Virus record (IMG/VR): IMGVR_UViG_3300043478_000034
Strand: one strand, 5' to 3'
Source: a virus
Length of the DNA: 64,000 bases
Shown: positions 1,528 through 63,847 of the stretch, piece after piece
Position numbering within the stretch: the stretch's first letter is position 1
Layout of the letters: each line of letters starts with the position of its first letter
The notes under the pieces: generated by a model
What the model was told of the DNA's origin: nothing
Database searches by the model: none
What the model saw: only the letters and a program-made list of their open reading frames with translations
Position numbers and translations under genes: made by a program

Positions 1528-1540
1528 GTTAGTAACTAAC
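1528..1540. repeat. GTTAGTNACTAAC palindrome, copy 1/42 (centre A)
   Basis: Intergenic, 23 nt upstream of ATG 1504 (minus strand). Confidence 0.95.
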
Positions 1541-1590
1541 CAGCTAATGGGCCAGTGCGACATTGCCGCCCTGCCCATAGCTGCCCAAGG

Positions 1591-1770
1591 TTAATGCACT
1601 TGGGATAACAGCACTTGCCGTGACTGAGTGTTCACGACCCGCCACGATACGCCTAGCCCGTCGAGACGCCGCGCCTCACGCTGCGCCTTGGCTAGGCTGT
1701 GGTGAAGTGGGCCATTCCCTGACCAGTAGGGTACATTGGCGGATTTGAACTGAACGATGAAACGGTCCAT
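1591..1770 (-). CDS. hypothetical protein
   Basis: Track ORF 1591..1827 trimmed to ATG 1770, which follows AAGGAGAATCAATCAC. 59 aa. Confidence 0.55.
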   Translation of the reverse strand: MDRFIVQFKSANVPYWSGNGPLHHSLAKAQREARRLDGLGVSWRVVNTQSRQVLLSQVH

Positions 1771-1856
1771 GTGATTGATTCTCCTTGCGTTATGTGTTAG
1801 CTTGTGGCCAACCAAGTAGCACAGCACCCGTAGATGCCGTACCCTTTAGCAGTCCC

Positions 1857-2096
1857 CTAGAGCTTGACGGTCGAGACGTTCGAGACGGTCCAGCCAAAGC
1901 TAGCCCATCGGCCAGTGGTTGGCACGGCAGCCTTGTCGGACACGTATCGCCGCATCTGGATCGAGCGGTTGCCCGGTACTGTCGAGTCCAGCGCGACGAC
2001 GGCATCCTGGCTAGCGGGGAAACACCCGTCGTAGCGGAGCATGTCCATGGGGAACGTGCCCTTGCCCATCACGAAAAAACGCTGGCTATACTTCAT
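1857..2096 (-). CDS. hypothetical protein
   Basis: Track ORF 1857..2204 trimmed to ATG 2096, which follows ACAGGAGTATTACCGC. 79 aa. Confidence 0.5.
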   Translation of the reverse strand: MKYSQRFFVMGKGTFPMDMLRYDGCFPASQDAVVALDSTVPGNRSIQMRRYVSDKAAVPTTGRWASFGWTVSNVSTVKL

Positions 2097-2234
2097 GCGG
2101 TAATACTCCTGTCGCGACGGACTAGACATCCGAGACGCGAATAGGCCACCCCCGAGAGACAACTCTCCCGTGGATAGCCTATTCGTGGGGGTGTTTGTCG
2201 GCACACCCCATGCCGCTAGACGGTACTGGCGGTA

Positions 2235-2645
2235 CTACTCGCCTTTGCTGGCCAGCGCCGAGTCGTTCGCCTTGATAAAGGCGCGGATCTCCTTCTCGGC
2301 ATCGAGGAGAGTGAGCATCTGCTCTTTGTACAGCGTGACGGGAAACCGAGCGCCGAGATTGTAGATGGACATAGCGCGCTTCTCGGACACCTTGAAAACC
2401 AACGGACGCTTGACCTTGACGACGGGTTTGGCAGCAGACAGTTTGGCATTCTCTGCCTTGAGACGGGCGATTTCGGCGATGGTGGCCGAGTTATCGACCA
2501 CGGGCTTGGGTGCCGTGATCTTGGCCAGCGCATCGGCCACGGCAGCGGCAACGATTGCCGAGATGTCGAAAGACGGGACAGCAGTCGGTACTGTCGCAAT
2601 CGCCTTGCCATTGATCATGTTCTTAACGGTCGTGTTGATAGCCAT
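2235..2645 (-). CDS. hypothetical protein (first gene of the leftward arm)
   Basis: 136-aa ORF. ATG 2645 is preceded by TGGAGAACTAATCAC. Confidence 0.65.
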   Translation of the reverse strand: MAINTTVKNMINGKAIATVPTAVPSFDISAIVAAAVADALAKITAPKPVVDNSATIAEIARLKAENAKLSAAKPVVKVKRPLVFKVSEKRAMSIYNLGARFPVTLYKEQMLTLLDAEKEIRAFIKANDSALASKGE

Positions 2646-2674
2646 GTGATTAGTTCTCCATATAGCTCATTCCC

Positions 2675-2683
2675 TGTATACCA
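2675..2683 (-). promoter_or_regulatory. extended -10 promoter element TGGTATACA for the leftward arm
   Basis: The minus strand reads TGgTATACA about 30 nt upstream of ATG 2645, just after hairpin 2688-2732. Confidence 0.35.
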
Positions 2684-2687
2684 GGAC

Positions 2688-2732
2688 GGCTATGGCGGTA
2701 GATACAGTTCTCCTCTATCTATCGCCATAGCC
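2688..2732. other. strong hairpin (10 + 5 bp)
   Basis: GGCTATGGCG-GT-AGATA...TATCT-AT-CGCCATAGCC. Confidence 0.5.
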
Positions 2733-2799
2733 GTACCGACAGTCCAGTCCGCCACCGTCGCAGGGACGCAGCTCTCGATGGAGCTATCGCGTTCTGTTC

Positions 2800-2812
2800 G
2801 TTAGTGACTAAC
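2800..2812. repeat. GTTAGTNACTAAC palindrome, copy 2/42 (centre G)
   Basis: In the control region, 154 nt upstream of ATG 2645 (minus strand). Confidence 0.95.
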
Positions 2813-3229
2813 TGTCTGTCGGTCGTATCTATGTTGCGAATCATGGGCTACAGTCTGCCTGTACCCTAGACCGCTATTGTGTTTTACTGGGGACCGTTCG
2901 TTTAAGCATCGCTACGCCTACCAGTGGTCAATACCCACGCTGGAATTGTTAGGGTGATCGCTCGCGCATCTTACCGCCATCGCGACACCATGGAGTTGAG
3001 ATTTACTTAGTCCATGGCTACTCACTAGGGGACCGATCAAGGGATTCTCCACCTTGCCGACGGTCTTTCTTCCAAGATACACGTGTAGCAACTAACTTAT
3101 GTCCGTTAACCTTATGCGAGTCTCGCGTCGATAGACTATCATCCGACAGTCCGCGTGACCGTGTTCCGTACTCGCTCTTAAGCATCGCGCCCTTCAAGGT
3201 GGCCGACATGACCTAACTAGACCGACACA

Positions 3230-3282
3230 GGGATGACTACCCGCCGTCTTACTCCTTCGGTTCTGGGGATGACTACCCGCCG
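3230..3282 (+). repeat. 17-bp direct repeat GGGATGACTACCCGCCG, two copies 36 bp apart
   Basis: Identical copies at 3230-3246 and 3266-3282 in the ORF-poor control region. Confidence 0.7.
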
Positions 3283-3598
3283 ATTGGATTCATGCTTGCG
3301 ATGCCGAATATGTCAAATAACTGAGGTAATCTCCGCTTTTCTCGCTCGTGAGCTTTCGTTTCGCTCTTGGGTACTTGCGGACACTGCTACTAATGCAAGG
3401 TCATGGCCAAACTCAAATTTGCCTTGCCAGACTCAATAGAATCATGAGGATGTGTACTTTATGCGACAAAGCAACCATGCCGAGACGGCACAAATGACTG
3501 GTAAAAGATGTACTATTTACCTGATTTTTACTGCGATTACATGGTAAGATTTTCAGGGAAAAACGATTCACCTACCCCATTTTATTGGATCTAAAAGA

Positions 3599-3611
3599 GT
3601 TAGTCACTAAC
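3599..3611. repeat. GTTAGTNACTAAC palindrome, copy 3/42 (centre C)
   Basis: In the control region. It abuts a minus-strand TTGACA at 3612-3617. Confidence 0.95.
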
Positions 3612-3726
3612 TGTCAACGTGGCGTCTCGTTTCAGATACCGCCTTCCAGCTAGGCCAAAACAGGCAAATGATAGCGTTTGCAGTTTGCCTTTTTCTCTTT
3701 AGAATCATATAGATAGCAGGAATCGA

Positions 3727-3739
3727 GTTAGTCACTAAC
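3727..3739. repeat. GTTAGTNACTAAC palindrome, copy 4/42 (centre C)
   Basis: In the control region. Confidence 0.95.
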
Positions 3740-3872
3740 TTGCAAGAATGGCTGTTTTCCTTACATCCGCTGTACTCGTGGCGGACCAGCTAGGGCTAGA
3801 TTGAACGCGGCGTCTTGTTATTTTTGTGTGCTATATAAAGGATACAAACGCGGCCGCAATACCATTGGTAAG

Positions 3873-3972
3873 CCACGCGAGGTACGTGGTACGCGAGGTA
3901 CGTAGTGATAGACACGTGGTACGCGAGGTACGTGCTACGTGGTACGTACCACGCGAGACACGCGAGGTAAGA
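3873..3972. repeat. iteron-like array
   Basis: ACGCGAGGTA occurs at 3875, 3891, 3921 and 3960, with a partial copy at 3951. The 20-mer ACGTGGTACGCGAGGTACGT occurs at 3884-3903 and 3914-3933. The 16-bp palindrome CGTGGTACGTACCACG lies at 3938-3953. An AT-rich tract follows at 4040-4100. Confidence 0.7.
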
Positions 3973-4075
3973 CAATGACACGTACCACCCGCGCGGGGCC
4001 AGGGGGCGGGCGGATGGGTCCCATGGTGTACCCAGAATACGACCAATTTTTGAACTATTGGGGCATAAAATAATA

Positions 4076-4084
4076 TGCTATACT
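4076..4084 (+). promoter_or_regulatory. extended -10 element TGcTATACT
   Basis: It lies 11 nt upstream of palindrome copy 4096 and 41 nt upstream of ATG 4125. No good -35 box. Confidence 0.3.
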
Positions 4085-4095
4085 AGAAATAAACA

Positions 4096-4108
4096 GTTAG
4101 TCACTAAC
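4096..4108. repeat. GTTAGTNACTAAC palindrome, copy 5/42 (centre C)
   Basis: 16 nt upstream of ATG 4125. Confidence 0.95.
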
Positions 4109-4124
4109 TGGAAAGGGCGAATAA

Positions 4125-4304
4125 ATGGCGAAATGTGAGAAATGTCGTGTAAAAAGCATGGAAATCGCACTGCGCGACCAGCGTATCCGCATACTGGAGG
4201 CGATTATTAAGGAATATATAGAAAATGACCCCGGCTACGGCATTGGTGATGGGTATCCTAACGAGATAGTGGCCAGAATGCGCGAGATTCTAGCCGATAG
4301 TTAG
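4125..4304 (+). CDS. small AT-rich hypothetical protein (59 aa, N-terminal CxxC)
   Basis: Hand-translated: MAKCEKCRVKSMEIALRDQRIRILEAIIKEYIENDPGYGIGDGYPNEIVARMREILADS. It starts 16 nt after palindrome copy 4096-4108. Its TAG stop lies inside copy 4300-4312. One codon below the ORF-track cutoff. Confidence 0.45.
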   Translation: MAKCEKCRVKSMEIALRDQRIRILEAIIKEYIENDPGYGIGDGYPNEIVARMREILADS

Positions 4305-4312
4305 TCACTAAC
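4300..4312. repeat. GTTAGTNACTAAC palindrome, copy 6/42 (centre C)
   Basis: Contains the TAG stop of 4125..4304. Confidence 0.95.
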
Positions 4313-4330
4313 CGGGATTTACAGGTAAAA

Positions 4331-4343
4331 GTTAGTGACTAAC
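4331..4343. repeat. GTTAGTNACTAAC palindrome, copy 7/42 (centre G)
   Basis: 18 nt after copy 6. Confidence 0.95.
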
Positions 4344-4632
4344 TGGCAAAATGGCTCGATTACAGCGTTTTTACTAAGCAGGCACGTACTCCCCCACGGG
4401 GGGTCCTGGAAATTCACGTCCTGGAGGACCGATAATGAGACAATTCACCCATAACCCTTGCATTTTCATGCACTTACCTCCACTTTTACTACCATTTTCG
4501 GAGATATACACCATATGGAGAGTCGATTGCCCCCACTTTTCATTTCTCGGTTTGCCCTCACTTTACATTTCAAAGTACTCTTTATGAATTGCAAAAAGTA
4601 GTCTATATACTGTACTTTTCCGGGAATCCAAA

Positions 4633-5640
4633 ATGCCAAAACCGTCCCATCTCGAACTTTTGTCAAAAGGCACCCAGTCATTTACCCCTGATAGGCTGTT
4701 CTTGGCCCTTGGCGGGGCCTACACGCACGAAAATCTACTTGCCGCGTGCGGGAGGCTACCCATACGAGATCAGCGCCTCCTACGCCAAATGGTGAGGAAT
4801 TTCACTCCGTGGCTAAAATGGCGGGGGTTAGTTACCAACTCGCAATTCGCCGACCTGTGGGAATTTGCGACAGACCCAACGCCAGTATTGCAAATCTCCC
4901 CAGCGTCACGAGCACGGCTGGAACATTCCCTGGCCACCATCGACCGAACCAACAATTATCACAACGTCCAGTGCAATGCGCTATTCATGCTGGCACTGGG
5001 ACTAGGTATTCATCCACGCCACGCCTATACGCTGACATTACTCGACATTGCACGTATACGATCATTATTGAAATCCCTGCACTGCTACACCCAGTGGGCC
5101 TGGACGTACATTGACAAGTTAGTCACCAACAGAGGTGTGCATTTACGCCGTGGCCATTATGTACCCCAGCTATTCATCACCTACGGCACCGGCGTCCCCA
5201 TCGACCTCGCCACTGCCCACGGTCTCGCCAGCCGATGGAAGTCCCTCTACAGTCTCAACGCACGCGAAGCCATCCTCGCCCACCGCACCATGGCCGTGGA
5301 GTTCGCCGGTAACCGCCGCGCCATTACTACCCTATATAAGGAGATATTCACCGCAAATGAAAAACACCCAGGCCGATACTCGACTCCGTCAGACAGTGGC
5401 GTCCCTGTCCCAGCAACTACACCAGAACCAGACCCGGGGGGCAATGCCACTATCACCCATCCATACTGGGATGGCACCGCCCGTGATACGCAGTCACTCA
5501 AGTCCATCTCTACCGCACTCCAGCTTGCCACCCACCGGCACTTCGTCAGGTACCGGTACCTCGTTGCGCGCCGAGATTATGATCATCGCCAATACCTGCT
5601 TAGATCACATGCCGAACCGCTCGATAGCCATCTTGTCTAA
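4633..5640 (+). CDS. hypothetical protein, weak tyrosine-recombinase-like features
   Basis: 335-aa ORF. LGLGIHPRHAYTLTLLDI resembles recombinase box I. AHRT...TTLYKE resembles box II with its Tyr. No clear SD. The 3' end is uncertain because it overlaps 5357..5782. Confidence 0.5.
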   Translation: MPKPSHLELLSKGTQSFTPDRLFLALGGAYTHENLLAACGRLPIRDQRLLRQMVRNFTPWLKWRGLVTNSQFADLWEFATDPTPVLQISPASRARLEHSLATIDRTNNYHNVQCNALFMLALGLGIHPRHAYTLTLLDIARIRSLLKSLHCYTQWAWTYIDKLVTNRGVHLRRGHYVPQLFITYGTGVPIDLATAHGLASRWKSLYSLNAREAILAHRTMAVEFAGNRRAITTLYKEIFTANEKHPGRYSTPSDSGVPVPATTPEPDPGGNATITHPYWDGTARDTQSLKSISTALQLATHRHFVRYRYLVARRDYDHRQYLLRSHAEPLDSHLV

Positions 5641-6764: not shown

Positions 6765-6777
6765 GTTAGTTACTAAC
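6765..6777. repeat. GTTAGTNACTAAC palindrome, copy 8/42 (centre T)
   Basis: 18 nt upstream of ATG 6796. The SD follows directly. Confidence 0.95.
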
Positions 6778-6795
6778 TAAGGAGAACCATTCACA

Positions 6796-8356: not shown

Positions 8357-8365
8357 TGGTATACT
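8357..8365 (+). promoter_or_regulatory. extended -10 element TGgTATACT upstream of the tail-fibre gene
   Basis: It directly follows the terminator and lies 7 nt before palindrome copy 8373. Confidence 0.4.
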
Positions 8366-8372: not shown

Positions 8373-8385
8373 GTTAGTGACTAAC
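8373..8385. repeat. GTTAGTNACTAAC palindrome, copy 9/42 (centre G)
   Basis: 16 nt upstream of ATG 8402. Confidence 0.95.
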
Positions 8386-8401
8386 CACAGGAGAGGCCAC
8401 C

Positions 8402-14372: not shown

Positions 14373-14384
14373 TTAGTGACTAAC
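14372..14384. repeat. GTTAGTNACTAAC palindrome, copy 11/42 (centre G)
   Basis: Its first G is the last base of the TAG stop of 13938..14372. Confidence 0.95.
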
Positions 14385-15060: not shown

Positions 15061-15061
15061 C
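15049..15061. repeat. GTTAGTNACTAAC palindrome, copy 12/42 (centre G)
   Basis: Contains the TAA stop of 14404..15060. 4 nt before the terL ATG. Confidence 0.95.
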
Positions 15062-47845: not shown

Positions 47846-47849
47846 ATGT

Positions 47850-52270: not shown

Positions 52271-52283
52271 GTTAGTGACTAAC
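52271..52283. repeat. GTTAGTNACTAAC palindrome, copy 34/42 (centre G)
   Basis: Overlaps the stop of 52283..53263 by 1 nt. 18 nt before ATG 52252. Confidence 0.95.
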
Positions 52284-53263: not shown

Positions 53264-53368
53264 TTGAGTTACTCTCCTTAGTTGATTGCCTATTGCCACA
53301 CACAGGGGGGTGGCGTGACCCCTAACCCCTGCGTTGTCATAGAGATGCGAGTTACTGCCACCTCTACT

Positions 53369-53410: not shown

Positions 53411-53719
53411 TTACGTTTCCCGCCGGTTAGTGACTAACGTGTGGCACTTCGGGCACCGGGTATCCACCAGTACTTGTACATGACAATGGCGTATGATAAC
53501 GGGCGGGGCCGTGGTTGCAACGATCTGCCCAATGCACGACACGCCCTCGGCGATGTGGTCCGGGTTGGTGTGGTACTCATTACATTTAGCATCGAGCCAG
53601 CGTTCGGCATCCTCCCTATGCGAGAAGGTGCTGGACTTGCCTACCACCATGGGTTCCTTGTACCCCATGCGGACGGCCTGTTTACTTATCGCCCTCCAGT
53701 AGGCAATGTAGCTAGACAC
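53411..53719 (-). CDS. hypothetical Cys-containing protein
   Basis: Track ORF 53411..53776 trimmed to in-frame GTG 53719 (ATGGAGG SD 6 nt upstream). It has a C-terminal CPKC motif. A palindrome copy encodes LVTN 4 codons before the stop. Confidence 0.4.
   Translation of the reverse strand: MSSYIAYWRAISKQAVRMGYKEPMVVGKSSTFSHREDAERWLDAKCNEYHTNPDHIAEGVSCIGQIVATTAPPVIIRHCHVQVLVDTRCPKCHTLVTNRRET
53426..53438. repeat. GTTAGTNACTAAC palindrome, copy 35/42 (centre G)
   Basis: In frame (LVTN) near the 3' end of 53411..53719. About 30 nt upstream of the P4 -35 box. Confidence 0.95.
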
Positions 53720-55344: not shown

Positions 55345-55357
55345 GTTAGTCACTAAC
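55345..55357. repeat. GTTAGTNACTAAC palindrome, copy 36/42 (centre C)
   Basis: Contains the TAA stop of 55346..56074. 1 nt before ATG 55343. Confidence 0.95.
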
Positions 55358-56074
55358 CCCCGGCTGGTCCAGGTCCAGCACGATGTCCAGTACCCGGCAC
55401 GCCTCGTACCCAAGTAGGGCGCGTATTGCCGGGTAGTGGATGTTGTGGTAGATGCGCTTGGCCAGTTGGATCTCGCCAAACTTGAGGCCAGGGTTGGGTG
55501 CGTGGTACCGCCCACACTTGACGCAGTGGTTGTTGCTGTCGAACGGGCCGGGGTGGTCGCAGTCACAGGTACCCGCCCTCACCATGTTGTCCTGCTTATC
55601 CCACCCCTCGATGCGTACACTGGTAGCCGTTGGTGCAGTGCGGCGACCCTGCTGTTCCAGCCGGTGGTCAAGGGTGGCATTGCATTCCCTGAGTTGCTCG
55701 ATAGCCTTGTCCTTGGCCTGTGTGGCCATGTTCAGTTCCACAATCTTGCCGTTCAGCGTGTCGATCACGCCCATGTTGTACTTGATGACCCCATCCCTGG
55801 CCTTGATCGTCTCGTTGCTGGACCGGATGGTGTCGTGACAGGACTTGATCTCCGCTAGCTTCTCCTGGACAATGTCATCTAGCCCAGCGATGGTGGTGTC
55901 CTTTTCATGCAGGAGGTTTTGGAATGCCTGCCGCGTAATACCCTGTTGATCCTCCAGTTCGTGGTTGGCCTTGGTTAGTGACTGGTTCTCCTCGCCGAGT
56001 TTGCGATTCTCCAGTAACAGTTCAGCGTAGCCCTCCTCCAATGAGGCGACATGCTGCGATATTGTCTTTGACAT
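55346..56074 (-). CDS. coiled-coil protein with C-terminal Cys/His cluster
   Basis: Track ORF trimmed to ATG 56074 (GAAGGAGAACGAACCAATC). It has a long heptad-like region. Cys/His cluster: CDCDHPGPFDSNNHCVKCGRYH. Confidence 0.55.
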   Translation of the reverse strand: MSKTISQHVASLEEGYAELLLENRKLGEENQSLTKANHELEDQQGITRQAFQNLLHEKDTTIAGLDDIVQEKLAEIKSCHDTIRSSNETIKARDGVIKYNMGVIDTLNGKIVELNMATQAKDKAIEQLRECNATLDHRLEQQGRRTAPTATSVRIEGWDKQDNMVRAGTCDCDHPGPFDSNNHCVKCGRYHAPNPGLKFGEIQLAKRIYHNIHYPAIRALLGYEACRVLDIVLDLDQPGVSD

Positions 56075-56091
56075 GATTGGTTCGTTCTCCT

Positions 56092-57366
56092 TCATAGTAT
56101 TCTCAGTTCTCTGCATAGTCCTGCGATATCATCGGCGAGTACCCATTCGACCCGCTTGTTGCGTATGCCATTGACCCGTTCAATAATACCCAGGTGCTCG
56201 ATGTCTTCCATATTCCTACGTATGGTTGGGGGGCTGGTCATGCGATACCCATCTACCTTGGCACGGGCTAATACGCCAGCGTCAATATCCTCATTGGTGA
56301 ACCTATTCTTGTGATACGGTGCCCCCTTGGCACGCATGGCGGCGATGATGCACTGCATGACATTGCCCCGTATGGCGGGGAGACTGCCCCATAGCATGGA
56401 CGACAACACTCTATGTGCATCCTGGTCCTCGACACCGGCGACCCGCATACCCAGGAACAGGGACTTAAATTCCCCCGCCACTCTCATTGGGCCTTCGGGT
56501 GCGGGGATGAACTCGATGATGTCGCTTTTGTACTTGTCACGTTTCACCACACTCCTTGCCCTGCATATGAGTTGCGATGCAAAGTTCGTCCACTGGTTCT
56601 CGTAGACCTCCAGTTCGAACGGCACATTGCCCTTGTCGATAATGTCCAGGGTTTGATTGAGATGATCACTCACTGCCTTGGCAATGTCTATGTCCATCTC
56701 CCGCTTGGACTTAACGGCGAGGGCTTTGAGGTTTTCGCTGTGGCCCAGCGTTGTTGCGTACCGCCACATAATAAACCGCTGGCCCATCTCCCCTATGACA
56801 CCGTGGTGCGACTCGATGATGCCGGTGCATTTGGTTATACAGCCTACCTTCCCATGCCACTTGAGGATCTTGGCACCATCTGTGCCCACGGCGCGAACGA
56901 ACTTCCCATCGTAGATCATGCGGAGGCAGGCAATGACTTCGGCTTGCTGTTCGTTGCGGAGGTTGAGGATGTTGGTGAAGTCAGACATAACCAGTATGCC
57001 TTGCCCACCGTTGCCGATCTCACGCAATACCCCACCTGTGGCATCGCGTGCCTTGTCACGCTTGGGTGAGGCCGAGAGAAATGCCGCCGCACCTTTGACA
57101 CTATCAATGGGGTGGGTGTTGCGTACTGGTTCCACGAGGATCTCGTCATCGACGCCAGTGTAGCCCAGTAGGGATGTGACCAGTGTAGATCCACCGGCAG
57201 AGGGACCGCCTATTAACATTGTCCACACTGGGGTACCGGGCAAGTGGTTGCCTGCGACGGTGCCGAGTACGACATAGAGTACCTGGGGGTCAGGCAGGTG
57301 TAGATACTGTCTCAATACCTTGGTGATATGAGACAGGGATTCATGAGGACGGAAGCGTAATGCCAT
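56092..57366 (-). CDS. replication-module protein with a degenerate P-loop (possible helicase/primase-associated NTPase)
   Basis: 424 aa. The P-loop-like LIGGPSAGGSTLV lacks the Lys. Walker-B-like GILVMSDF. Start context: palindrome, CAGGAGGAACCAATCAC, ATG. Confidence 0.55.
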   Translation of the reverse strand: MALRFRPHESLSHITKVLRQYLHLPDPQVLYVVLGTVAGNHLPGTPVWTMLIGGPSAGGSTLVTSLLGYTGVDDEILVEPVRNTHPIDSVKGAAAFLSASPKRDKARDATGGVLREIGNGGQGILVMSDFTNILNLRNEQQAEVIACLRMIYDGKFVRAVGTDGAKILKWHGKVGCITKCTGIIESHHGVIGEMGQRFIMWRYATTLGHSENLKALAVKSKREMDIDIAKAVSDHLNQTLDIIDKGNVPFELEVYENQWTNFASQLICRARSVVKRDKYKSDIIEFIPAPEGPMRVAGEFKSLFLGMRVAGVEDQDAHRVLSSMLWGSLPAIRGNVMQCIIAAMRAKGAPYHKNRFTNEDIDAGVLARAKVDGYRMTSPPTIRRNMEDIEHLGIIERVNGIRNKRVEWVLADDIAGLCRELRIL

Positions 57367-57383
57367 GTGATTGGTTCCTCCTG

Positions 57384-57396
57384 GTTAGTGACTAAC
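57384..57396. repeat. GTTAGTNACTAAC palindrome, copy 37/42 (centre G)
   Basis: 17 nt before ATG 57366. Confidence 0.95.
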
Positions 57397-57499: not shown

Positions 57500-58735
57500 C
57501 TATTCCACGTCATCAGCAGGCAGGCAGTGCTTCTCGAACTGCTTGACCACTTCGGGCATGACCAGCGACCCGTCCATGAACTTGGACATTGCGGCCCCAA
57601 GTTTGGCAATGTGAGGATTCTCGTCGTTGATCAACTCCTCACACAGGTCGTCCAGGTGCTTGAGCTTGAGCGTCATGGACTTGGCATCGGCGCTGATACC
57701 CGCACCCTTACCCGCCGCCTCAGCCACCGCTGCCGCCGCCTTGCTGGAGAGTTTGCCTTCCTTCTCCAGCTTGATCGCTGCCTTCTTGAGATCACCCTTG
57801 GATACGGCAATGACCTCCTCGACTTCCTCGACTTCGGCACCACCCTCACCGTTCTCGCTGGCCTTGGCCGCGCGTTTCTTTGCCAGCTTGCGCTTACGTT
57901 CCAGGTTGTCCAAGCGTATCTGATCAGGCGTCCTGGTGTCTGGCGCATTCGGGTCGCGCTTGTTGTCGATCTTCTTCTTGGCATTGGCGTCGAAGGCTTC
58001 CTCGAATACCAGCTTGATCTGGTCCTCGGTGAGGAATCCGCTGGCCGCGAGACCACCCATGTCACGGGCGGCATCGGCACCGACTTCTTTGTTGTGGACT
58101 TTCTTCAGGATGTCCTTGTCGAGGAGACCCATGCGGAGGGTGCGGTAGATGGTGGCCTTGCTGGTCTCGGTGTATCGAGCCAGCTTCTCCACGTCCTTGC
58201 CACAGGCACCCACTCCCTTCTCGCCAGCCTTGGGTACCTTCACATCCCAGTCCAGGTCGTCGGCCAGGGCGAGGAATGCATTGAGCATCTCGGGTGCGGT
58301 GAGGCTACGGTTGGCGAGGTTGGCGAGGATCGCACCCTGGACAGTGGTGATGCGGTCCTTGCCCTTGCCGGGGTTCCACAGGATGACGGGTACAGTTTTG
58401 AAGCCCAGTGATTTCGCGCAGCGGAAGCGGCGGCGACCGTCTACGATTGCAAACTTACCTTCCGCGAAATGTTCCCCATCTTCCTCGGTTGTCGGCCTGA
58501 TGGTCAGTGCCTGCAACACTTGGCCAGCCTGTTCGATGGCGTGGCGCAGCATCTCTAGTTTGTTATCGCCTTCCATGCGGCCAGGGTTGTCAAGCAATAC
58601 CAAGTCCTTGACGGGGATCTGCTGTGCTGATTGAATCACCAGCGGCGTTGCGGTGACATCGACACGGGTTCCCTTCGCCACAACGGCGGCGGGGGTGACG
58701 TTCTTCTTAACGGTTGCGGTCTGTTCGGTTGCCAT
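57500..58735 (-). CDS. ParB-like nuclease-domain protein
   Basis: 411 aa. N-terminal ParB/Srx fold segments VKDLVLLDNPGRM and FAIVDGRRRFRCAKSLGFKTVPVILW. Central HTH-like ARYTETSKATIYRTLRMG. Lys/Glu-rich tail. Confidence 0.7.
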   Translation of the reverse strand: MATEQTATVKKNVTPAAVVAKGTRVDVTATPLVIQSAQQIPVKDLVLLDNPGRMEGDNKLEMLRHAIEQAGQVLQALTIRPTTEEDGEHFAEGKFAIVDGRRRFRCAKSLGFKTVPVILWNPGKGKDRITTVQGAILANLANRSLTAPEMLNAFLALADDLDWDVKVPKAGEKGVGACGKDVEKLARYTETSKATIYRTLRMGLLDKDILKKVHNKEVGADAARDMGGLAASGFLTEDQIKLVFEEAFDANAKKKIDNKRDPNAPDTRTPDQIRLDNLERKRKLAKKRAAKASENGEGGAEVEEVEEVIAVSKGDLKKAAIKLEKEGKLSSKAAAAVAEAAGKGAGISADAKSMTLKLKHLDDLCEELINDENPHIAKLGAAMSKFMDGSLVMPEVVKQFEKHCLPADDVE

Positions 58736-58764: not shown

Positions 58765-58777
58765 GTTAGTGACTAAC
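58765..58777. repeat. GTTAGTNACTAAC palindrome, copy 38/42 (centre G)
   Basis: Contains the TAA stop of the HTH gene. 29 nt before the ParB-like ATG at 58735. Confidence 0.95.
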
Positions 58778-58996
58778 TTTACGCCGACGACGCTTACTTC
58801 GACCGGCGCGTTTCCTTAGCTGAGTCGTTGCCGCCTTGTCTATGACGGCGAGTAGTTCATCCATGGATAGACCCATGGCTGCGGATAGGCGACCCAGTAC
58901 ATTGACACTAGGTCTACTACCCTCGTTCAATATGCGGTAGAGGTGACGTGTTGAGATGCCCACCTCAGCGGCGAGGGTTTCAAATTGATGCGCCAC
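58766..58996 (-). CDS. HTH (XRE-like) regulator, possibly translated from a leaderless mRNA
   Basis: HTH segment: ETLAAEVGISTRHLYRILNEGSRPSVNVLGRLSAAMGLSMDELL. The track start, TTG 59032, is part of a TTGACA -35 box. In-frame GTG 58996 lies 7 nt after the TATCAT -10 box. The start is uncertain. Confidence 0.5.
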   Translation of the reverse strand: MAHQFETLAAEVGISTRHLYRILNEGSRPSVNVLGRLSAAMGLSMDELLAVIDKAATTQLRKRAGRSKRRRRKVSH

Positions 58997-59055: not shown

Positions 59056-59232
59056 CTATGCAAGTTCTTCAATGAGTACCGCTTCGCAGGGTTCGCCGTC
59101 GGTGGCGCACAGATCGACGCACATTTCGCATACGTGCTGGTCGCAGTTGTCGCAGTGGTGGGTGGCTTGGTTGTCACAGCGGTCGAGTTCCGCGTTGGCG
59201 TCGAGCAGGCGGTAACGTTTCTCGCATCTCAT
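59056..59232 (-). CDS. 58-aa Cys-rich (zinc-ribbon-like) protein
   Basis: Hand-translated: MRCEKRYRLLDANAELDRCDNQATHHCDNCDQHVCEMCVDLCATDGEPCEAVLIEELA. The ATG follows CAAGGAGAACCAATC. ATGA overlap with the upstream gene. Confidence 0.45.
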   Translation of the reverse strand: MRCEKRYRLLDANAELDRCDNQATHHCDNCDQHVCEMCVDLCATDGEPCEAVLIEELA

Positions 59233-59612
59233 GATTGGTTCTCCTTGTTGGACAGGCGGTACTCAGCACCAGTGTTGCCGCGCTTGATCACGGGTACCCC
59301 ATCAGGGTCATATCGTACCACAGTGAACAGTTCATCCTGGGTGGGGGCACCGGCGTTAGTGACTAACACTTCGCCGGTTGGGACGACGGGTGCGGTGGCC
59401 ATGTCGATCACCTCCATCCACTCGGCATCCCTGGGTACCAGTATCCCGCCTCTGCCCACGGTGCCAATGAGGATGGCATTAGATCCAAACCCCATCGGCC
59501 CCTTGATCTCATCCTTGACCTCACTCCACGGGTCGCGATGTGATCCAAACTTGATGCGGTAGGCGACCCGGCCCCCACTTCTTTTAATCGCGCGTGCGCG
59601 TTGCCATGTCAT
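59229..59612 (-). CDS. hypothetical protein
   Basis: Track ORF 59229..59621 trimmed to ATG 59612, 10 nt after TAAGGAGA. One in-frame palindrome copy. Confidence 0.5.
   Translation of the reverse strand: MTWQRARAIKRSGGRVAYRIKFGSHRDPWSEVKDEIKGPMGFGSNAILIGTVGRGGILVPRDAEWMEVIDMATAPVVPTGEVLVTNAGAPTQDELFTVVRYDPDGVPVIKRGNTGAEYRLSNKENQS
59355..59367. repeat. GTTAGTNACTAAC palindrome, copy 39/42 (centre G)
   Basis: In frame (LVTN) in 59229..59612. Confidence 0.95.
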
Positions 59613-59626
59613 TAGCTCCATTCTCC

Positions 59627-59764: not shown

Positions 59765-61593
59765 TGCGTTATCTCCAGTGTCTCGGCTATTAGTTCCAAC
59801 CACCGTGACTCCAGTACCTGGGGTACCTGTACCTCGCGCCCCTTCTTGGTAATGTACGGGACAAAGTATAACCCACCCTTGGCACGGGTGAGCATGACGT
59901 TGAGGACGTTGGACTCCTGCATGGTGTCTTCGTCGTTGCGGCCAGCGACACCCAGGCGATCAGGGCGCAGCAGTACCAGTCTGTTATCACTGGTCTCGAC
60001 CTCTAGCCCCTTGAACTTGTGGCCAGTACTTAGTGTCACCTTGCCGTTGCGTGCGCCATCCCCGAAGACAAAGCGTATTGTATTCTTGATCTTACCTGCG
60101 TCCATGCCCTCCATTGCCAGGACATTGAGACAGTCAAACTGATCCTGCAATGCGGCCAGCCGACGCTCGGCATCATCCCCCTCCATGAGCAGTGGCTTGC
60201 GCTTGGCTAGGTACCAGTCGCGCAGCGACAGGCCAAACGACGAGGCATCCCCGGCCCAGTCCTTGCCGTTGACCTCGTCAACCAAGTCGCACAGCTTGTC
60301 ACCTATATCCCTGCCCTTGATCATGCAGGGGATGGACTTAGACAGTAACCTGTATGCTAGTGCAACCAAGTCGGCGTTGTTGCGGCAGAGCACCACGTCA
60401 CCGGGCTTGAGCCATGCGATTAGCTCAGTGTCCTGCACTACGCCCAGCCCACCCTTGGCAGTACCGGGCAGGCATTCGAAGTCTGGCACGATGGCCTGTG
60501 TCAACCGCACCACCATCTCGGAACAGCGGCGAGTCTGTGTCAGTGGCAGGACAGTCAAGCCCCGGTCATCTGTGCCACGTAGCAGTACCTCCCCGTTGTC
60601 CATGGCCTTGGTGTCTGCGCCACGGAATCCGAAGATGGCCTGTCTCTCGTCACCTACCACCACCACCCGTGCCCCTGCCAGTACTAACTTCCTCACCATC
60701 TCGGCCTGGGGTTGGTTGGTATCCTGGTACTCATCGACGAATACGAGTGATGGTGCAGTGGTCAACTCGGCATGTGTCTCGGCCTGCCACCAGAGTTGGT
60801 CATCGAACCCTATGCCCCACTTGCGTAGATCCAGTGACATCTCCAGCAGGTAATCCAATGCCCCGCATACCTGGGACAGGGTGCCGTTGTCCAGTGTCAC
60901 ATCGTACCGGTCACACAGGGCCTTGACATTCTCCTCGGTGGGGGTGCGCCACTCGTTCTTGCAGTACCCGAGTAACCGCCGCAGGTTGACACGCATCTTG
61001 CGTACCCGTGCCTTGGTGAGTTGGTCGTCGTTGGTGTTGGCCTTGATACCCAGTGCATCGAGCATGGCCCATATACCGCCAGCGTTGGACTTGCCTAGCT
61101 CGATGAGGCGTCCGATGTCCCGGCCCTCGATGCCATTGTCTCTCATAAACTCAATGCCAAGCTGGTGGTAGGACAGGGCACTATAGCTGGGGGCTTGACG
61201 TCCCATTGCCCTGGCAAGCAGGACGAGCCAAGCGATGCACTCGTTAATGAGTGTGGTTTTCCCCGTCCCTGCCCGTGCCCGTACCATTATGTGGCGGCGG
61301 TTAGTTACTAACTCCCGGAGTACTGCGAGTTGTTGGCCAGTGAGTTGTAGGCGTGGCTGGTCCATGAGGGTGAGCAACTTCTCACGTTCCTCGTCACGTG
61401 CGTCTGCGCCGAATGCCACGTAGCGGATACTGGTGATGGTGGGTATAGATGGGTGCATGTCCACCAGCAGTGATGCCAGCATGTTCTCATGCCATACGCT
61501 GTCGGTCCCGCGACCCTCAAGCTCCGCCGAGCGGTCAGCCGTTCGATCAGTTGTGATTGGTTGTTGTCTCTTGTTGTTTAGTTTCAATGCCAT
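59761..61593 (-). CDS. UvrD/Rep/PcrA-type SF1 DNA helicase
   Basis: 610 aa. Motif I ARAGTGKTT. Motif II VFVDEYQDTN. Motif III VVGDERQAIFGFRGAD. Motif V TGHKFKGLE. Motif VI VMLTRAKGGLYFV. Confidence 0.8.
   Translation of the reverse strand: MALKLNNKRQQPITTDRTADRSAELEGRGTDSVWHENMLASLLVDMHPSIPTITSIRYVAFGADARDEEREKLLTLMDQPRLQLTGQQLAVLRELVTNRRHIMVRARAGTGKTTLINECIAWLVLLARAMGRQAPSYSALSYHQLGIEFMRDNGIEGRDIGRLIELGKSNAGGIWAMLDALGIKANTNDDQLTKARVRKMRVNLRRLLGYCKNEWRTPTEENVKALCDRYDVTLDNGTLSQVCGALDYLLEMSLDLRKWGIGFDDQLWWQAETHAELTTAPSLVFVDEYQDTNQPQAEMVRKLVLAGARVVVVGDERQAIFGFRGADTKAMDNGEVLLRGTDDRGLTVLPLTQTRRCSEMVVRLTQAIVPDFECLPGTAKGGLGVVQDTELIAWLKPGDVVLCRNNADLVALAYRLLSKSIPCMIKGRDIGDKLCDLVDEVNGKDWAGDASSFGLSLRDWYLAKRKPLLMEGDDAERRLAALQDQFDCLNVLAMEGMDAGKIKNTIRFVFGDGARNGKVTLSTGHKFKGLEVETSDNRLVLLRPDRLGVAGRNDEDTMQESNVLNVMLTRAKGGLYFVPYITKKGREVQVPQVLESRWLELIAETLEITQ
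61300..61312. repeat. GTTAGTNACTAAC palindrome, copy 40/42 (centre T)
   Basis: In frame (LVTN) in the UvrD-like helicase, 10 codons before the Walker A motif. Confidence 0.95.
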
Positions 61594-61625
61594 AACTTAT
61601 ATACTCCCTTGCGTTTCATAATGGT

Positions 61626-61659
61626 GGTGGTACATGCGAGGTTGCCCACATGTACCACC
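61626..61659. other. 11-bp perfect stem-loop in the intergenic region upstream of the UvrD-like gene
   Basis: GGTGGTACATG - 12 nt - CATGTACCACC. Confidence 0.4.
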
Positions 61660-61703
61660 GGTGTGAACTTGCTTGTTACTGCGTAGTCCTTACCTCTATA
61701 CCC

Positions 61704-62171
61704 TCACCTCCTTCCTTTCAACAGGTTGAGGAGCAATGCGCCGACGTGGTCCTCATCAGGGGTCTCGGTCAGCGCCCAGCCTTGTCTCAGTGACAGCCCC
61801 CTGCAATCTATAGCTGGCGGGTAGTGGTCGTGGACGCTGGCCCAGAACATACCACGGTAGGTGTCGGCACGTTCCTTGGTGAGAGTACCCAACGTCTGAG
61901 CAGCGGCCTCGGCTTTGCTGCCGTCTGCGGCGAACTCATAGACAGTCTTCTGCTGGGCATGGAGCAGGTCGTAGTAGCGGGATACCAGATACAATACCCG
62001 CGTCGTCCCTTCTGGTACGGTGCCTATGAGTTTCTCGTTGTCACCTAGTGGGGTGATACCACCAGTACAATCAGGGTCGAGCGGCAGGTTGTGGCTGTCG
62101 CCCAGTACCAGTTCAAGCTCGGCCAAAAAGTTGGGCAGTACGCCCGGTGTAGTGTTCTTCATGATGATCAT
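61704..62171 (-). CDS. hypothetical protein
   Basis: Track ORF 61704..62312 trimmed to ATG 62171, 12 nt after AAAGGAG. ATGs at 62183 and 62162 are alternatives. Confidence 0.45.
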   Translation of the reverse strand: MIIMKNTTPGVLPNFLAELELVLGDSHNLPLDPDCTGGITPLGDNEKLIGTVPEGTTRVLYLVSRYYDLLHAQQKTVYEFAADGSKAEAAAQTLGTLTKERADTYRGMFWASVHDHYPPAIDCRGLSLRQGWALTETPDEDHVGALLLNLLKGRR

Positions 62172-62202
62172 TGTACCATACATCTCCTTTGGAATCAAGT
62201 AC

Positions 62203-62550
62203 TTAGCGCACCATCCGTTTCGTACACACCAGGGCATGGCCAGCGATGTAGTCACCGGGGAGTAGCCACTTGGCCACCAGTGCAGTAGCCGTGGGGTTCT
62301 CCTCCTTGCCATTCATCTTCCCTTCCTCGTCCATCCACATCAACCTACCGTCCGGCATGTCGATCATCTGCACGATGGTGGACTTCGTATGGGTGTACAG
62401 TTCCCCGATCTTGAAGTCACTGCCGTTGACTGGTTCCACGTCGGTGATCGTGCCGTCTGGGGCAATGACCTTGGCAACGGTGTCTACTGTCGCCTTGGCC
62501 AAGGGGTCAGCCATTGTTGCACTTGCGGTGCGTCGATTTGTTTTTTCCAT
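62203..62550 (-). CDS. hypothetical protein (DUF3846-like, from memory)
   Basis: 115 aa. The ATG is preceded by CAAGGAGAACAGATCGT. The pattern ...MWMDEEGKMNGKEENPTAT...DYIAGHALVC is the basis for the family guess. Confidence 0.55.
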   Translation of the reverse strand: MEKTNRRTASATMADPLAKATVDTVAKVIAPDGTITDVEPVNGSDFKIGELYTHTKSTIVQMIDMPDGRLMWMDEEGKMNGKEENPTATALVAKWLLPGDYIAGHALVCTKRMVR

Positions 62551-62590
62551 ACGATCTGTTCTCCTTGTGATACCTAGATAGCTAGGGTTA

Positions 62591-62603
62591 GTTAGTTACT
62601 AAC
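62591..62603. repeat. GTTAGTNACTAAC palindrome, copy 41/42 (centre T)
   Basis: Contains the TAA stop of 62592..63800. 40 nt before ATG 62550. Confidence 0.95.
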
Positions 62604-63800
62604 TGCGCCGCTGGTGGTATCCAGTATGGGCCGCAGTTCATCAGCCAGGATGTCATTCTCCCTGGCGTCCATCTTGCGTAGCCGTAGTGCGTGCTCCATG
62701 AACACTGGCCTGAACTCCTCAATGGTGGTACGCAGTAGAGTATGACACCCTATGATGACCTTGTCCATGTCGATGAGTTGCAATTGGTACGGTCCAATCT
62801 GTGGGCCAGGGTTGTCGTAGCTGTAGAGCAGGTCTACCCCATTGGCCCAGATGCGGTCGCACATTTGCAGCAGCCGTGCCGCTGCCCGGATACCTATGCG
62901 TGCGCCACGTGATGTCTCGACCTCGTTACCCACCACTCGTAGATAGGTAGTGGCACTGGCCTGGGTGAGTACCCATTGTGGCACCGTACTACTGTATGGC
63001 ATGGCACTGTTGGACCCGGCCTTCCACTGCTGGATGAGTTCGGCAATGCGTTCCGGTGTCCAATGTTCCTTCTCTTTCTCCTCGCGTGCCACCCGTTCGG
63101 CATCCCGTTGCCTGCGCCGCCGCTGCTGTTCCTCCCATGAGACATGCCCGAATGCGCCGTGCTTGGCAACCCGGTCATTGTCAATCACCTCCCATCTATC
63201 GCTATAGACCTTGGCTACTTCCATCTCGCTGTCGGTCCACCTGCTGGCGAGCAAGGCGGTACGACAGGTGGACAGTTCCACTACTGTGCCATTAGCCAGC
63301 GTGTCCAGCCTAGCCAGTATCTGGGCACGCTCCTCCACCTCGGCTTGGTGAGTGACCATGGCCCGGTGACGGCGTGCCTTCATGCGTGCCAGCGCCTTGT
63401 CATCCCGCCCACAGTAGCCCCAGTGGGCAGTGAAACGGGCGGCTAGGTTACGTAACGTGGCGGTGTCGTCGTCCCTGTCTACCCATTGCATGTTGTAGCC
63501 CATGATGTGCTTGGATATACGCACTGCATGATGCTGGTCAGTGGGCATACCACGGTGGATCTCATTGACAATCCGGTACGGGCTGGACCGTGACCCGCGT
63601 GGGGTATCAATGCCGTCGGCGTGGAGTGTGATTAGTACCCCACCTATAGTCAGATGCACCCCTACTACCGAGCCATCGTATAGCAGTACCTTGCCATCGC
63701 GAGTAGTGGATAGGTTGGATGCATGTTTGTCACCAGTTTCAGTGGTTACCGCACGGTTACACCACCGATGGACCAAGTCAGACTGAGTTAGTTTTGCCAT
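62592..63800 (-). CDS. hypothetical protein (402 aa)
   Basis: TGGAGG SD. The TAA stop lies inside a palindrome copy. No motif was recognised. Confidence 0.6.
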   Translation of the reverse strand: MAKLTQSDLVHRWCNRAVTTETGDKHASNLSTTRDGKVLLYDGSVVGVHLTIGGVLITLHADGIDTPRGSRSSPYRIVNEIHRGMPTDQHHAVRISKHIMGYNMQWVDRDDDTATLRNLAARFTAHWGYCGRDDKALARMKARRHRAMVTHQAEVEERAQILARLDTLANGTVVELSTCRTALLASRWTDSEMEVAKVYSDRWEVIDNDRVAKHGAFGHVSWEEQQRRRRQRDAERVAREEKEKEHWTPERIAELIQQWKAGSNSAMPYSSTVPQWVLTQASATTYLRVVGNEVETSRGARIGIRAAARLLQMCDRIWANGVDLLYSYDNPGPQIGPYQLQLIDMDKVIIGCHTLLRTTIEEFRPVFMEHALRLRKMDARENDILADELRPILDTTSGAVSN

Positions 63801-63834
63801 GTTGTCTGAACCTCCAGCACACTGGATAGGTAGC

Positions 63835-63847
63835 GTTAGTGACTAAC
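63835..63847. repeat. GTTAGTNACTAAC palindrome, copy 42/42 (centre G)
   Basis: 34 nt before ATG 63800. Flanked by CTGGATAG / CTATCCAG arms. Confidence 0.95.

Follow-up and report, generated by a model that had tools for sequence, protein, structure and literature searches.

An exact 13-bp palindrome repeated across the genome of an uncultivated soil phage, a putative duplex-DNA site for a phage-encoded helix-turn-helix protein

The stretch of DNA that is analysed here (IMG/VR record IMGVR_UViG_3300043478_000034, 64,000 nucleotides, referred to as the window) comes from an uncultivated soil phage, and it carries 42 copies of one 13-bp palindrome, GTTAGTNACTAAC, of which the first begins at position 1528 and the last ends at position 63847, as found by a regular-expression search of the 64-kb window. 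Between about 4.1 and 41.5 kb, the plus strand carries the structural genes of the phage, which include the genes for an SU10-type capsid protein, a terminase-like protein, a 1592-residue collagen-like tail fibre and a 2294-residue protein having an LPD38 domain. The minus strand, read from 64 kb down to 41.6 kb, carries the replication genes, which include those for PolA, a UDG-like/polymerase protein, UvrD-like and DinG-like helicases, an ERCC4 nuclease and a ParB-like protein. No integrase or lysogeny module is recognised in the proteins scanned, with many open reading frames (ORFs) having no match, and tRNA and Rfam scans of the window return no match. When 20 kb of the window is compared with the GenBank phages by megablast, no match is found; the sole tblastn match of the capsid protein (26%) is to Caulobacter phage Kuura, and the ParB-like protein has one weak match, to a Vibrio phage. 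There is no near relative among the GenBank phages, and therefore no cultured relative can help. The clade is a small set of contigs of 64-69 kb from JGI, ENA and Logan metagenome assemblies, the relatives being about 75% identical to the window at the DNA level, and a scan of IMG/VR and the JGI metagenomes with a ParB alignment finds close relatives only.

The genome-wide array of the palindrome is real. The architecture is that of a perfect palindrome with two 6-bp arms and a free centre base (6+1+6, with 12 fixed bases). The search reproduces exactly the 42 perfect copies that had been counted by eye in a first-pass annotation of this DNA, and the near-zero chance expectation given there is borne out by 100 dinucleotide-preserving shuffles, in which the perfect 13-mer is found 0 times. 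When up to two mismatches are allowed, 49 matches are obtained, versus 1.2 expected, and these are the 42 perfect copies, five one-mismatch copies (exactly the five that the annotation had listed as a minimum) and two artefacts that overlap perfect copies. The distribution is all-or-none, with 42 perfect copies, five near copies and none that is more degenerate. Lone half-sites are not enriched in the window (15 observed, 18.5 expected). The centre base is G in 19, C in 16, T in five and A in two of the copies, and when the intergenic copies are read in the gene sense (C in 14, G in nine, T in three and A in two) it does not track the gene strand significantly, in agreement with the annotation. 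The statement that the flanking sequence is not conserved is slightly too strong, since there is a weak symmetric preference, C being rare at position -1 and G at position +13, and since the copies of the control region are mostly extended to the 15-mer AGTTAGTNACTAACT. A literature search with the 13-mer and its cores yields chance primer-like matches only.

When checked against the ORF lists, about 32 of the 42 copies are intergenic, seven lie deep in genes and three (13826, 26823 and 53426) are at or near gene ends, or are ambiguous. The other counts of the first-pass annotation are also recovered: the stop codon of the upstream gene lies wholly inside the motif at exactly ten copies, at four others a single base is common to the motif and a TAG stop, and six copies lie in the control region, from 2800 to 4343. 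About half of the gene junctions (30 of 59) have a copy, and on either transcription arm a site comes about every 1.5 kb. If the control region is set aside, the copies are spaced more regularly than at random (coefficient of variation 0.55 versus 0.96, P about 1e-4), and within the long genes the intragenic copies are distributed more evenly than if they had been placed at random (P = 0.002). The distance from the motif to the ATG ranges from 0 to 34 nt, some copies being only 0-4 nt away; for the genes led by a Shine-Dalgarno (SD) sequence, the proposed distance of 16-19 nt is approximately right, as it applies to six sites and the site at 16890 has 11 nt. The initiation regions themselves are unusually conserved and extended beyond a plain SD sequence, reading GGAGAAYCAATCAC-ATG in the minus arm and AAGGAGAACAGAAAC..ATG in the plus arm (examples are at 57367-57383, 44924-44940, 1527-1545, 6778-6795 and 29628-29645). 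In addition, G+C-rich hairpins having no T-run (for example, CGGGGGTAAACCCCCG and GTCCCCCTGGGGGAC) are found directly beside copies, at 30059-30074, 47835-47849 and 4385-4400.

The placement of the copies is closely connected with their coding properties. The motif has stop codons in two of the three reading frames on each strand and the genes are tightly packed, so that the copies fit hardly anywhere but at gene ends or as the tetrapeptide L-V-T-N; for the same reason the coupling with stop codons, which had been put forward as a distinguishing trait, is weaker as such than it looks. The called proteome has 11 L-V-T-N tetrapeptides, and in every one the codons are TTA-GTN-ACT/ACC-AAC after a G, that is, the motif or a one-mismatch form of it, which shows selection at the nucleic-acid level even within genes. 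TTA accounts for 6% of the Leu codons and ACT for 20% of the Thr codons, and the perfect form is expected from codon usage at only 0.0085 per L-V-T-N peptide; these peptides therefore exist owing to the motif and not the reverse. The stop codons of the 58 called genes are 29 TAG, 18 TAA and 11 TGA. Bacteria and phages do not usually have TAG as their commonest stop codon, and its high frequency here is due in part to the motif, which provides a TAG or lies against one.

In the control region, the copy at 2800-2812 lies in non-coding DNA, and the copies at 3599-3611 (15-mer AGTTAGTCACTAACT) and 3727-3739 have the extended 15-mer form. The copy at 4096-4108 is 12 nt 3' of the extended -10-like sequence TGCTATACT (4076-4084) and 16 nt 5' of the ATG at 4125, an operator-like position; the copy at 4300-4312 provides the TAG stop of gene 4125-4304, and the copy at 4331-4343 follows it at a centre-to-centre distance of 31 bp (about three helical turns). 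The 1.5-kb non-coding region between the two divergent arms also has iteron-like direct repeats ACGCGAGGTACGTGGT (three to four copies plus inverted copies) at 3875-3991, which may mark the origin of replication or a packaging site. The control region also has two exact copies of a 17-nt direct repeat, GGGATGACTACCCGCCG, 36 nt apart (3230-3246 and 3266-3282).

Along the plus arm, one-mismatch copies at 4827-4839 (GTTAGTTACCAAC) and 5118-5130 (GTTAGTCACCAAC) lie in gene 4633-5640, where both still encode L-V-T-N. The intergenic copy at 6765-6777 is immediately followed by an SD sequence and the ATG at 6796, and the copy at 8373-8385 lies 8 nt 3' of the extended -10-like sequence TGGTATACT (8357-8365), upstream of the ATG at 8402 of the tail-fibre gene. 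This gene (8402-13180, 1592 residues with collagen repeats) is one of two giant ORFs and is the only long stretch (5.4 kb) having no perfect copy; the one-mismatch copy GTTGGTCACTAAC at 9414-9426 is the sole copy in this gap. The next copy, at 13826-13838, is in the 3' end of gene 13488-13847 (L-V-T-N), and the first G of the copy at 14372-14384 is the last base of the TAG stop of gene 13938-14372, the -10-like sequence TGATATGAT coming next. The copy at 15049-15061 supplies the TAA stop of gene 14404-15060, with the terminase ATG 4 nt further on (15066), and the copy at 16890-16902 supplies the TAA stop of this terminase-like gene (15066-16901), followed by an SD sequence and the ATG at 16914; it is kept in all relatives. 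The copy at 19479-19491 is intergenic (SD sequence, ATG at 19511), the copy at 20775-20787 provides the TAG stop of gene 19511-20779, and the copy at 22221-22233 lies between the capsid gene (20858-22096) and the gene at 22259. The G of the TAG stop is shared with the copy at 23811-23823 (gene 23056-23811, next ATG at 23828) and with the copy at 26121-26133 (gene 25918-26121, next ATG at 26135). The copy at 26823-26835 comes after the stop at 26800 and is intergenic if the next start is at 26887, and otherwise it is in ORF 26758-29619; the TAG stop of the gene ending at 29619 is within the copy at 29615-29627 (SD sequence, ATG at 29646). Two further intergenic copies are followed by a G+C-rich hairpin (30046-30058) and by a TATAAT-like hexamer with the ATG at 31800 (31759-31771). 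The second giant ORF (33798-40682; 2294 residues, with the LPD38 'polyvalent protein' domain) has copies at 33884-33896, 35984-35996 and 37499-37511, each read as L-V-T-N; the copy at 40689-40701 is after its stop at 40682, with the extended -10-like sequence TGGTATAGT 5 nt downstream. The copy at 41608-41620 is in the convergent gap between the two arms.

In the minus arm, the PolA gene has a one-mismatch copy at 42751-42763, and the copy at 43221-43233 supplies the TAA stop of gene 43222-43776. A 28-residue hydrophobic ORF, MDISIPYLTGVFILGFILGFIIGREWRD (43134-43220, minus strand), begins 0 nt after the latter copy, just upstream of the PolA start. The DNA polymerase is seemingly split into a 489-residue protein (45584-47053), which has a UDG-superfamily domain and a match to a PHROG polymerase family, and a 507-residue PolA polymerase domain (41623-43146), with several small genes in between. 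The copy at 44442-44454 provides the TAG stop of gene 44450-44923, and the copy at 45971-45983, read as L-V-T-N, is in gene 45584-47053. Intergenic copies are found at 47850-47862, followed by a hairpin and an SD sequence in the sense orientation, and at 48339-48351 (SD sequence, ATG at 48321). The copy at 50324-50336 is in gene 50177-50623 (L-V-T-N), the copy at 52271-52283 shares one base with the stop of gene 52283-53299 (next ATG at 52252), and the copy at 53426-53438 is in the 3' end of gene 53411-53776 (L-V-T-N). A one-mismatch copy lies in the DinG-like helicase gene (54894-54906), and the TAA stop of gene 55346-56116 is within the copy at 55345-55357, the next ATG being 1 nt on. The copy at 57384-57396 lies between the ParB-like gene and the next gene (SD sequence, ATG at 57366), and the copy at 58765-58777 supplies the TAA stop of a gene for an Xre-type protein, 30 nt before the ATG of the ParB-like gene. 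The remaining copies of this arm are at 59355-59367 (in gene 59229-59621, L-V-T-N), at 61300-61312 (in the UvrD-like helicase gene, L-V-T-N), at 62591-62603 (TAA stop of gene 62592-63800), at 63835-63847 (34 nt upstream of the ATG at 63800) and at 1528-1540, where an intergenic copy lies 1 nt before the ATG of the minus-strand gene 999-1526.

The conservation of the sites was measured over 61 orthologous-site comparisons with the relatives whose DNA is about 75% identical. Conservation is 90-100% at the twelve fixed positions, as compared to 46-85% for the flanks and 46% for the centre base. The commonest tolerated change is A4 to G (equivalently T10 to C), which is also seen in the near copies of the window, and intragenic copies are kept as well, the copy at 45971 in five and the copy at 61300 in six relatives. 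The sites are under strong, sequence-specific purifying selection at the nucleic-acid level.

In a sister lineage (Logan contigs L070, L150 and L151), whose terminase is 60% and whose ParB-like protein is 41% identical to that of the window, the gene order is the same, but GTTAGTACGTAAC (reverse complement GTTACGTACTAAC) is present in place of the window motif. This motif is asymmetric, it occurs in 18 identical copies, likewise at gene junctions and stop codons, and both orientations are found within each transcription arm. Copies are present at orthologous junctions (after the terminase gene, after the portal block and after the gene for a protein of 422/433 residues), which implies that sites have been converted in place between the lineages; the helicase gene of the sister lineage has its intragenic copy at a different position, where it is read as L-R-T-N, and sites therefore also turn over. 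In contig L150 (15068-15105), a copy of the motif is followed by four TAAC units (ACTAACTAACTAACTAAC), giving stops in all three frames before the next SD sequence. In a lineage that is 78% identical and has a lower G+C content, (G)TTAGT-W-ACTAA(C) is retained. In a 51% lineage (terminase identity; SRR26786844), represented by one 2.5-kb contig, the perfect palindrome GTTATCGGATAAC is present in a single copy at the junction upstream of the terminase gene, and in a 36% lineage there is no such repeat in 16 kb. The third variant, GTTATCNGATAAC, is found by two scans in single-copy contigs only. From lineage to lineage, the outer GTTA..TAAC does not change, and the differences are in the two inner bases of an arm.

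The array is specific to this phage clade among the collections searched. The IMG/VR scan for the motif together with an SD sequence matched 54 stretches; every multi-copy stretch (0.4-1.1 copies per kb) belongs to a relative of this phage, and unrelated contigs have a single match, as is also the case for the sister-lineage 14-mer GTTAGTACGTAACT, with 75 single chance matches in IMG/VR. Nine contigs of low G+C content (34-36%) in IMG/VR (L032, L033, L037, L044, L047, L050-L052 and L057) have one match each to the motif with AGGAG, which may be a conserved site in an unrelated phage group or chance. Distant homologues of the helicase (P0026 and P0027) are from unrelated phages that do not have any repeated palindrome. 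In a bacterial scan with AGTTAGTNACTAACT, covering one genome per species and matching at least 120 stretches, 119 of the 120 stretches among the matches listed (882 kb) are single copy, no organism recurs and no genome with a dense motif is seen.

Two adjacent genes of the minus arm stand out as candidates for encoding the protein that reads the motif. The first (58766-58996, minus strand; 76 residues from the ATG at 58996, in an ORF that reaches 59032) codes for a small Xre/Cro-type helix-turn-helix (HTH) protein, which matches Pfam HTH_3 (1.2e-7) and PHROG repressor families and has a very basic C-terminal tail. It is located directly upstream of the second gene (57500-58735, minus strand), which codes for a ParB/Noc-like protein of 411 residues with an N-terminal ParB domain and a ParB-type HTH. 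This protein matches Pfam ParB_N (2.8e-8; 34.2 bits versus a cut-off of 26.3), and in profile comparisons with the PDB its best matches are Noc (8e-10) and ParB (6e-9), the HTH region being collinear; its sister-lineage orthologue has a weak HTH_ParB match. The GERRxRA box reads DGRRRFRCA and is kept with E changed to R, and the ENLQREEL box reads ANLANRSL, in which the N is kept and the first E is lost. No ParA/IncC-type Walker ATPase is recognised beside the ParB-like gene, which argues against a partition system in the strict sense. The two candidate genes are adjacent in the window and in the L016, L014, L015 and L150 lineages (in L150, the orthologues are at 8386-8682 and 8704-9876), and neither is missing from any motif-bearing lineage in which this region was recovered. 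The recognition helix of the HTH_3 protein, GISTRHLYR(I/V)LNEG, shows one conservative I/V difference across all lineages having the window-type motif, including one that is only 58% identical overall, and it is changed only in the variant-motif lineage (GVSVRHVYRILNQG). The recognition helix of the ParB-like protein is more variable (SKATIYRTLRMG, SPANIYRTLRMG and DQATIYRHLRLS). This covariation of protein and site is anecdotal, and it fits the HTH_3 protein at least as well as the ParB-like protein. From the list of HTH candidates in the first-pass annotation, the 58766-58996 protein and the ParB-like protein are thus the ones conserved together with the motif, and the other HTH proteins are without specific support. 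The binder is most probably either the HTH_3 protein or the ParB-like protein, and by analogy the two may act together.

It is rather probable that the 13-mer is a duplex-DNA site for a phage-encoded dimeric HTH protein. A site of this kind had been proposed in the first-pass annotation, and it is the best-supported reading, agreeing with seven lines of evidence, with no single binder being picked out. The full dyad, and not the half-site, is enriched; the centre base is free within and between genomes; orientation is irrelevant in the sister lineage with its asymmetric motif; this variant motif has no fold as RNA; the tolerated variants do not favour changes that preserve a G.U pair (of 12 variant sites in the sense strand, four keep such a pair and eight break the pairing); copies that form close pairs are separated by 31 bp in the window and by 42 bp in a relative, corresponding to three and four helical turns; and the motif is multi-copy only in this clade within IMG/VR. 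Dimer-like recognition in particular agrees with the absence of half-site enrichment, the symmetric flank preference and the close pairs. The pair spacing and the copies adjacent to promoters (four of the 11 extended -10-like sequences of the window, at 4076, 8357, 14387 and 40707, abut a copy) fit proteins bound on one face of the duplex and an operator-like use at some promoters.

With such a dimer, each HTH subunit would read one GTTAGT arm, leaving the centre base pair uncontacted, and the HTH_3 and ParB-like proteins would possibly act jointly, as KorA and KorB do on plasmid RK2. The sites would be kept about every 1.5 kb on both arms, the two-frame stops of the motif driving the copies into short gene gaps, stop codons or L-V-T-N. 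The occupied sites may act genome-wide as roadblocks or operators, silencing transcription or setting its timing, or, if the ParB-like protein binds, as loading points from which clamps would spread over the whole phage genome. Binding by a protein, the identity of this protein and the effect of its binding are all points that we infer from the sequence. Several observations weigh against a dimeric HTH site as just described. The ENLQRE box of the ParB-like protein is only partly kept, the protein is far below the NCBIfam cut-offs (nucleoid_noc, 35.9 bits versus 315; parB_part, 35.4 versus 58.45), and its AlphaFold2 model, calculated from a 5-sequence alignment, has a predicted local distance difference test score (pLDDT) of 48, which is too poor for use. 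The covariation consists of one clear motif switch and one single-copy third variant, and it cannot separate the two candidates from each other nor either of them from an unrecognised protein. A simple homodimer would not readily account for a site that is uniformly asymmetric, as in the sister lineage. For most copies there is no recognisable promoter nearby, and seven copies directly abut an SD sequence in long intergenic gaps, which could point to an RNA-level or translational role.

An RNA-level role would mean that the transcribed motif, as a hairpin or as a sequence, is read at cistron boundaries by an RNA-binding protein or endoribonuclease of the phage or the host, affecting mRNA processing or the translation of the next gene. 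It would account for the copies at cistron boundaries, including the seven against SD sequences, others at 0-4 nt from an ATG and the overlaps with stop codons, and it would also agree with the somewhat greater frequency of orientation A in the gene sense in the sister lineage (about 10:5) and with the possible pairing of the window motif into a stem of 5 bp, closed by a 3-nt loop whose central base is free. This hairpin is, however, marginal (-1.1 kcal/mol), and the sister-lineage motif has no fold; no compensatory double changes are seen among the variants, variants that break the pairing are as frequent as those that keep it, and the motif has no match in Rfam. The asymmetric variant is found in both orientations within one transcription arm, seven to ten conserved copies are intragenic, three of them spaced through one giant gene, and the non-coding control region and the convergent gap have copies as well, such that a role at the RNA level is considered unlikely. 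A structured RNA element in particular is rejected, as the pairing is not preserved (eight of the 12 variants break it), the variant is unfolded and Rfam gives no match. An intrinsic (Rho-independent) terminator is ruled out by the -1.1 kcal/mol stem and the lack of a T-run, which upholds the earlier description of a stem of at most 5 bp with a 3-nt loop that is not a terminator, and a promoter is ruled out by the variable distance to the ATG (0 to 34 nt) and the free orientation. The scans for sigma-70-type promoters and for terminators are at chance level overall, and in the terminator scan the copy at 4096 alone scores, on the minus strand. It is also quite unlikely that the palindrome is imposed by the host, being either the site of a host regulator, a repeat driven by uptake, repair or methylation like HIP1, or an element like the repetitive extragenic palindromic (REP) sequences, which the phage mimics or has accumulated. 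Lineages with different motifs could infect different hosts, and the bacterial scan covers the 120 stretches among the matches listed; nevertheless, those 120 stretches are with one exception single copy with no recurring organism, the IMG/VR multi-copy matches are confined to this clade, and the sites have been converted in place between sister lineages, between which the phage HTH and ParB helices have changed as well.

The identity of the copies within each lineage, including the asymmetric variant, could easily be explained by templated spread, and this, together with the position at gene boundaries, would suit boundaries of module exchange or the footprint of a copy-and-paste micro-element, kept identical by concerted evolution with no binding protein. 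Some breakpoints of homology with the relatives are indeed at a copy (for example, 62591, 20775 and 43221), but the seven of 82 breakpoints (two relatives) that are within 15 nt of a copy, versus about two to three expected, are explained by the intergenic location. The orthologous positions are conserved and the sites converted in place, forty identical recombining palindromes would scramble the genome, yet the gene order is conserved, and no recombinase is linked to the motif, which makes this explanation very unlikely. The all-or-none sharpness of the array (42 perfect copies, five near copies and none further) resembles that of enzyme sites, as if the 13-mer were the recognition site of a DNA-modifying or nicking enzyme of the phage that introduces site-specific modifications or single-strand interruptions, and ParB-like proteins are partners of phage thymidine dioxygenases (bioRxiv 10.1101/2025.08.14.668559). 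Against this, no methyltransferase, dioxygenase or nickase domain is recognised among the proteins scanned, which are a subset of the ORFs, the dioxygenase-associated ParBs are without a DNA-binding domain, which the ParB-like protein of the window keeps, and a palindrome nicked on both strands would break the genome. An enzyme target is thus highly improbable. A link of the ParB-like protein to the TET/JBP-type thymidine dioxygenases was also considered and rejected, since those ParBs have no HTH and since no dioxygenase is recognised among the proteins scanned.

The favoured reading, a DNA site for a phage HTH protein, can be compared with known systems, and the analogues that had been proposed in the first-pass annotation (the stoperators and the Cluster O repeats) are apt. 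In the Cluster A mycobacteriophages L5 and Bxb1, tens of near-identical 13-bp intergenic sites, the stoperators, are bound by one phage HTH repressor, which blocks transcription; these sites are asymmetric, are oriented with transcription and serve prophage silencing. The window likewise has tens of 13-bp sites in short intergenic gaps genome-wide. Unlike the asymmetric and oriented stoperators, however, its site is perfectly palindromic, with a centre base that does not follow the strand, and the variant of the sister lineage occurs in both orientations. The Cluster O mycobacteriophages (Corndog and relatives) have a 17-bp dyad repeat, TGTTCGGNNNCCGAACA (7+3+7), with 34 perfect and three one-mismatch copies in about 70 kb; its function is unknown, and it has been contrasted with the stoperators (PMC4351075). 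Like the array of the window (42+5 in 64 kb, versus 34+3 in about 70 kb), the Cluster O repeat has invariant inverted arms and a free centre, is genome-wide on both arms, is not oriented to transcription and has about one third of its copies in or at the edge of coding regions, in a phage that is apparently not temperate and that encodes a ParB-domain protein. The repeats differ in sequence and length (7+3+7 versus 6+1+6) and the phages are unrelated, a Mycobacterium siphovirus versus an uncultivated phage with an SU10-type capsid; Corndog gp90 has only the ParB_N domain in common with the ParB-like protein of the window, and neither a supply of stop codons nor a switch of the motif between lineages is described there (PMC4351075). 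The 17-bp repeat of Cluster O is the nearest described phenomenon, being the same kind of feature with an unrelated sequence in an unrelated phage. A phage-wide array of one exact repeat is not unprecedented.

The closest mechanistic models, by analogy, would be the KorA/KorB, Noc and ParB systems. Plasmid RK2 has about a dozen KorB sites over a replicon of 60 kb. There, a small HTH gene and a ParB-family gene are in one operon, as in the adjacent pair of the window, and the sites act in long-range silencing via a sliding clamp. In contrast to RK2, with about 12 sites, the window has 42 sites, one motif for two candidate proteins and no IncC/ParA partner; its ParB-like protein matches KorB only marginally (E 0.39), and the replicon is a phage and not a plasmid. 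The KorB operator OB is a 13-bp 6+1+6 palindrome with a central S, TTTAGCGGCTAAA, and the KorA operator OA is the 12-bp GTTTAGCTAAAC; both have a TTAG/CTAA core in common with the window motif (PMC11790492). The parS site of Vibrio chromosome II, NTTTACANTGTAAAN, has a 6+1+6 arrangement of odd length, many parS sites begin with GTT and end with AAC, and M. xanthus has 22 parS sites (PMC7022226). In Ralstonia, parS12J is a naturally asymmetric site, one of whose arms differs at two positions, and it is 'repeated identically' (PMC5450999); its asymmetry matches the pattern of GTTAGTACGTAAC in the sister lineage. As with Noc and its NBS sites and with ParB and parS, the window has short perfect palindromes in many copies, with outer GTT..AAC and lineage-specific inner bases, 42 of them on the same replicon as a protein having an N-terminal ParB domain and an HTH, and Noc and ParB are the best solved-structure matches of this protein. 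The differences are the missing ParA, the sites not being clustered near an origin, a protein that is far below the family cut-offs and keeps the CTPase motifs only in part, and the setting in a probably lytic phage.

These analogies also allow for a more specific scheme, in which a ParB/Noc-like clamp, dependent on cytidine triphosphate (CTP), would load at the approximately 42 sites and coat the whole phage chromosome, marking the DNA as 'self' and forming a ParB-type condensate, with the small HTH protein locking the clamps at the sites, as KorA does, and so timing late transcription. This scheme is unlikely, but if it were true, the condensate could be a membrane-less factory for replication and packaging or a shield against host nucleases and silencers, and such a virus-wide use of ParB clamps has not been described before. 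To our knowledge, genome-wide arrays of one short exact repeat are found in a few actinobacteriophage clusters, with a mechanism demonstrated for the Cluster A stoperators only. The clade described here is an independent example of such a genome-wide repeat, from an uncultivated soil phage that is unrelated to those, and it lends itself unusually well to study, as the selection on the sites can be measured, the sites leave their mark on coding, in the L-V-T-N peptides and in a stop-codon usage led by TAG, sister lineages have the site in altered versions, and only two adjacent candidate binder genes are conserved with the motif. It could show how one protein and some 40 dispersed sites co-evolve, and whether lytic phages use ParB-type clamps or Cro-type repressors for whole-genome control.

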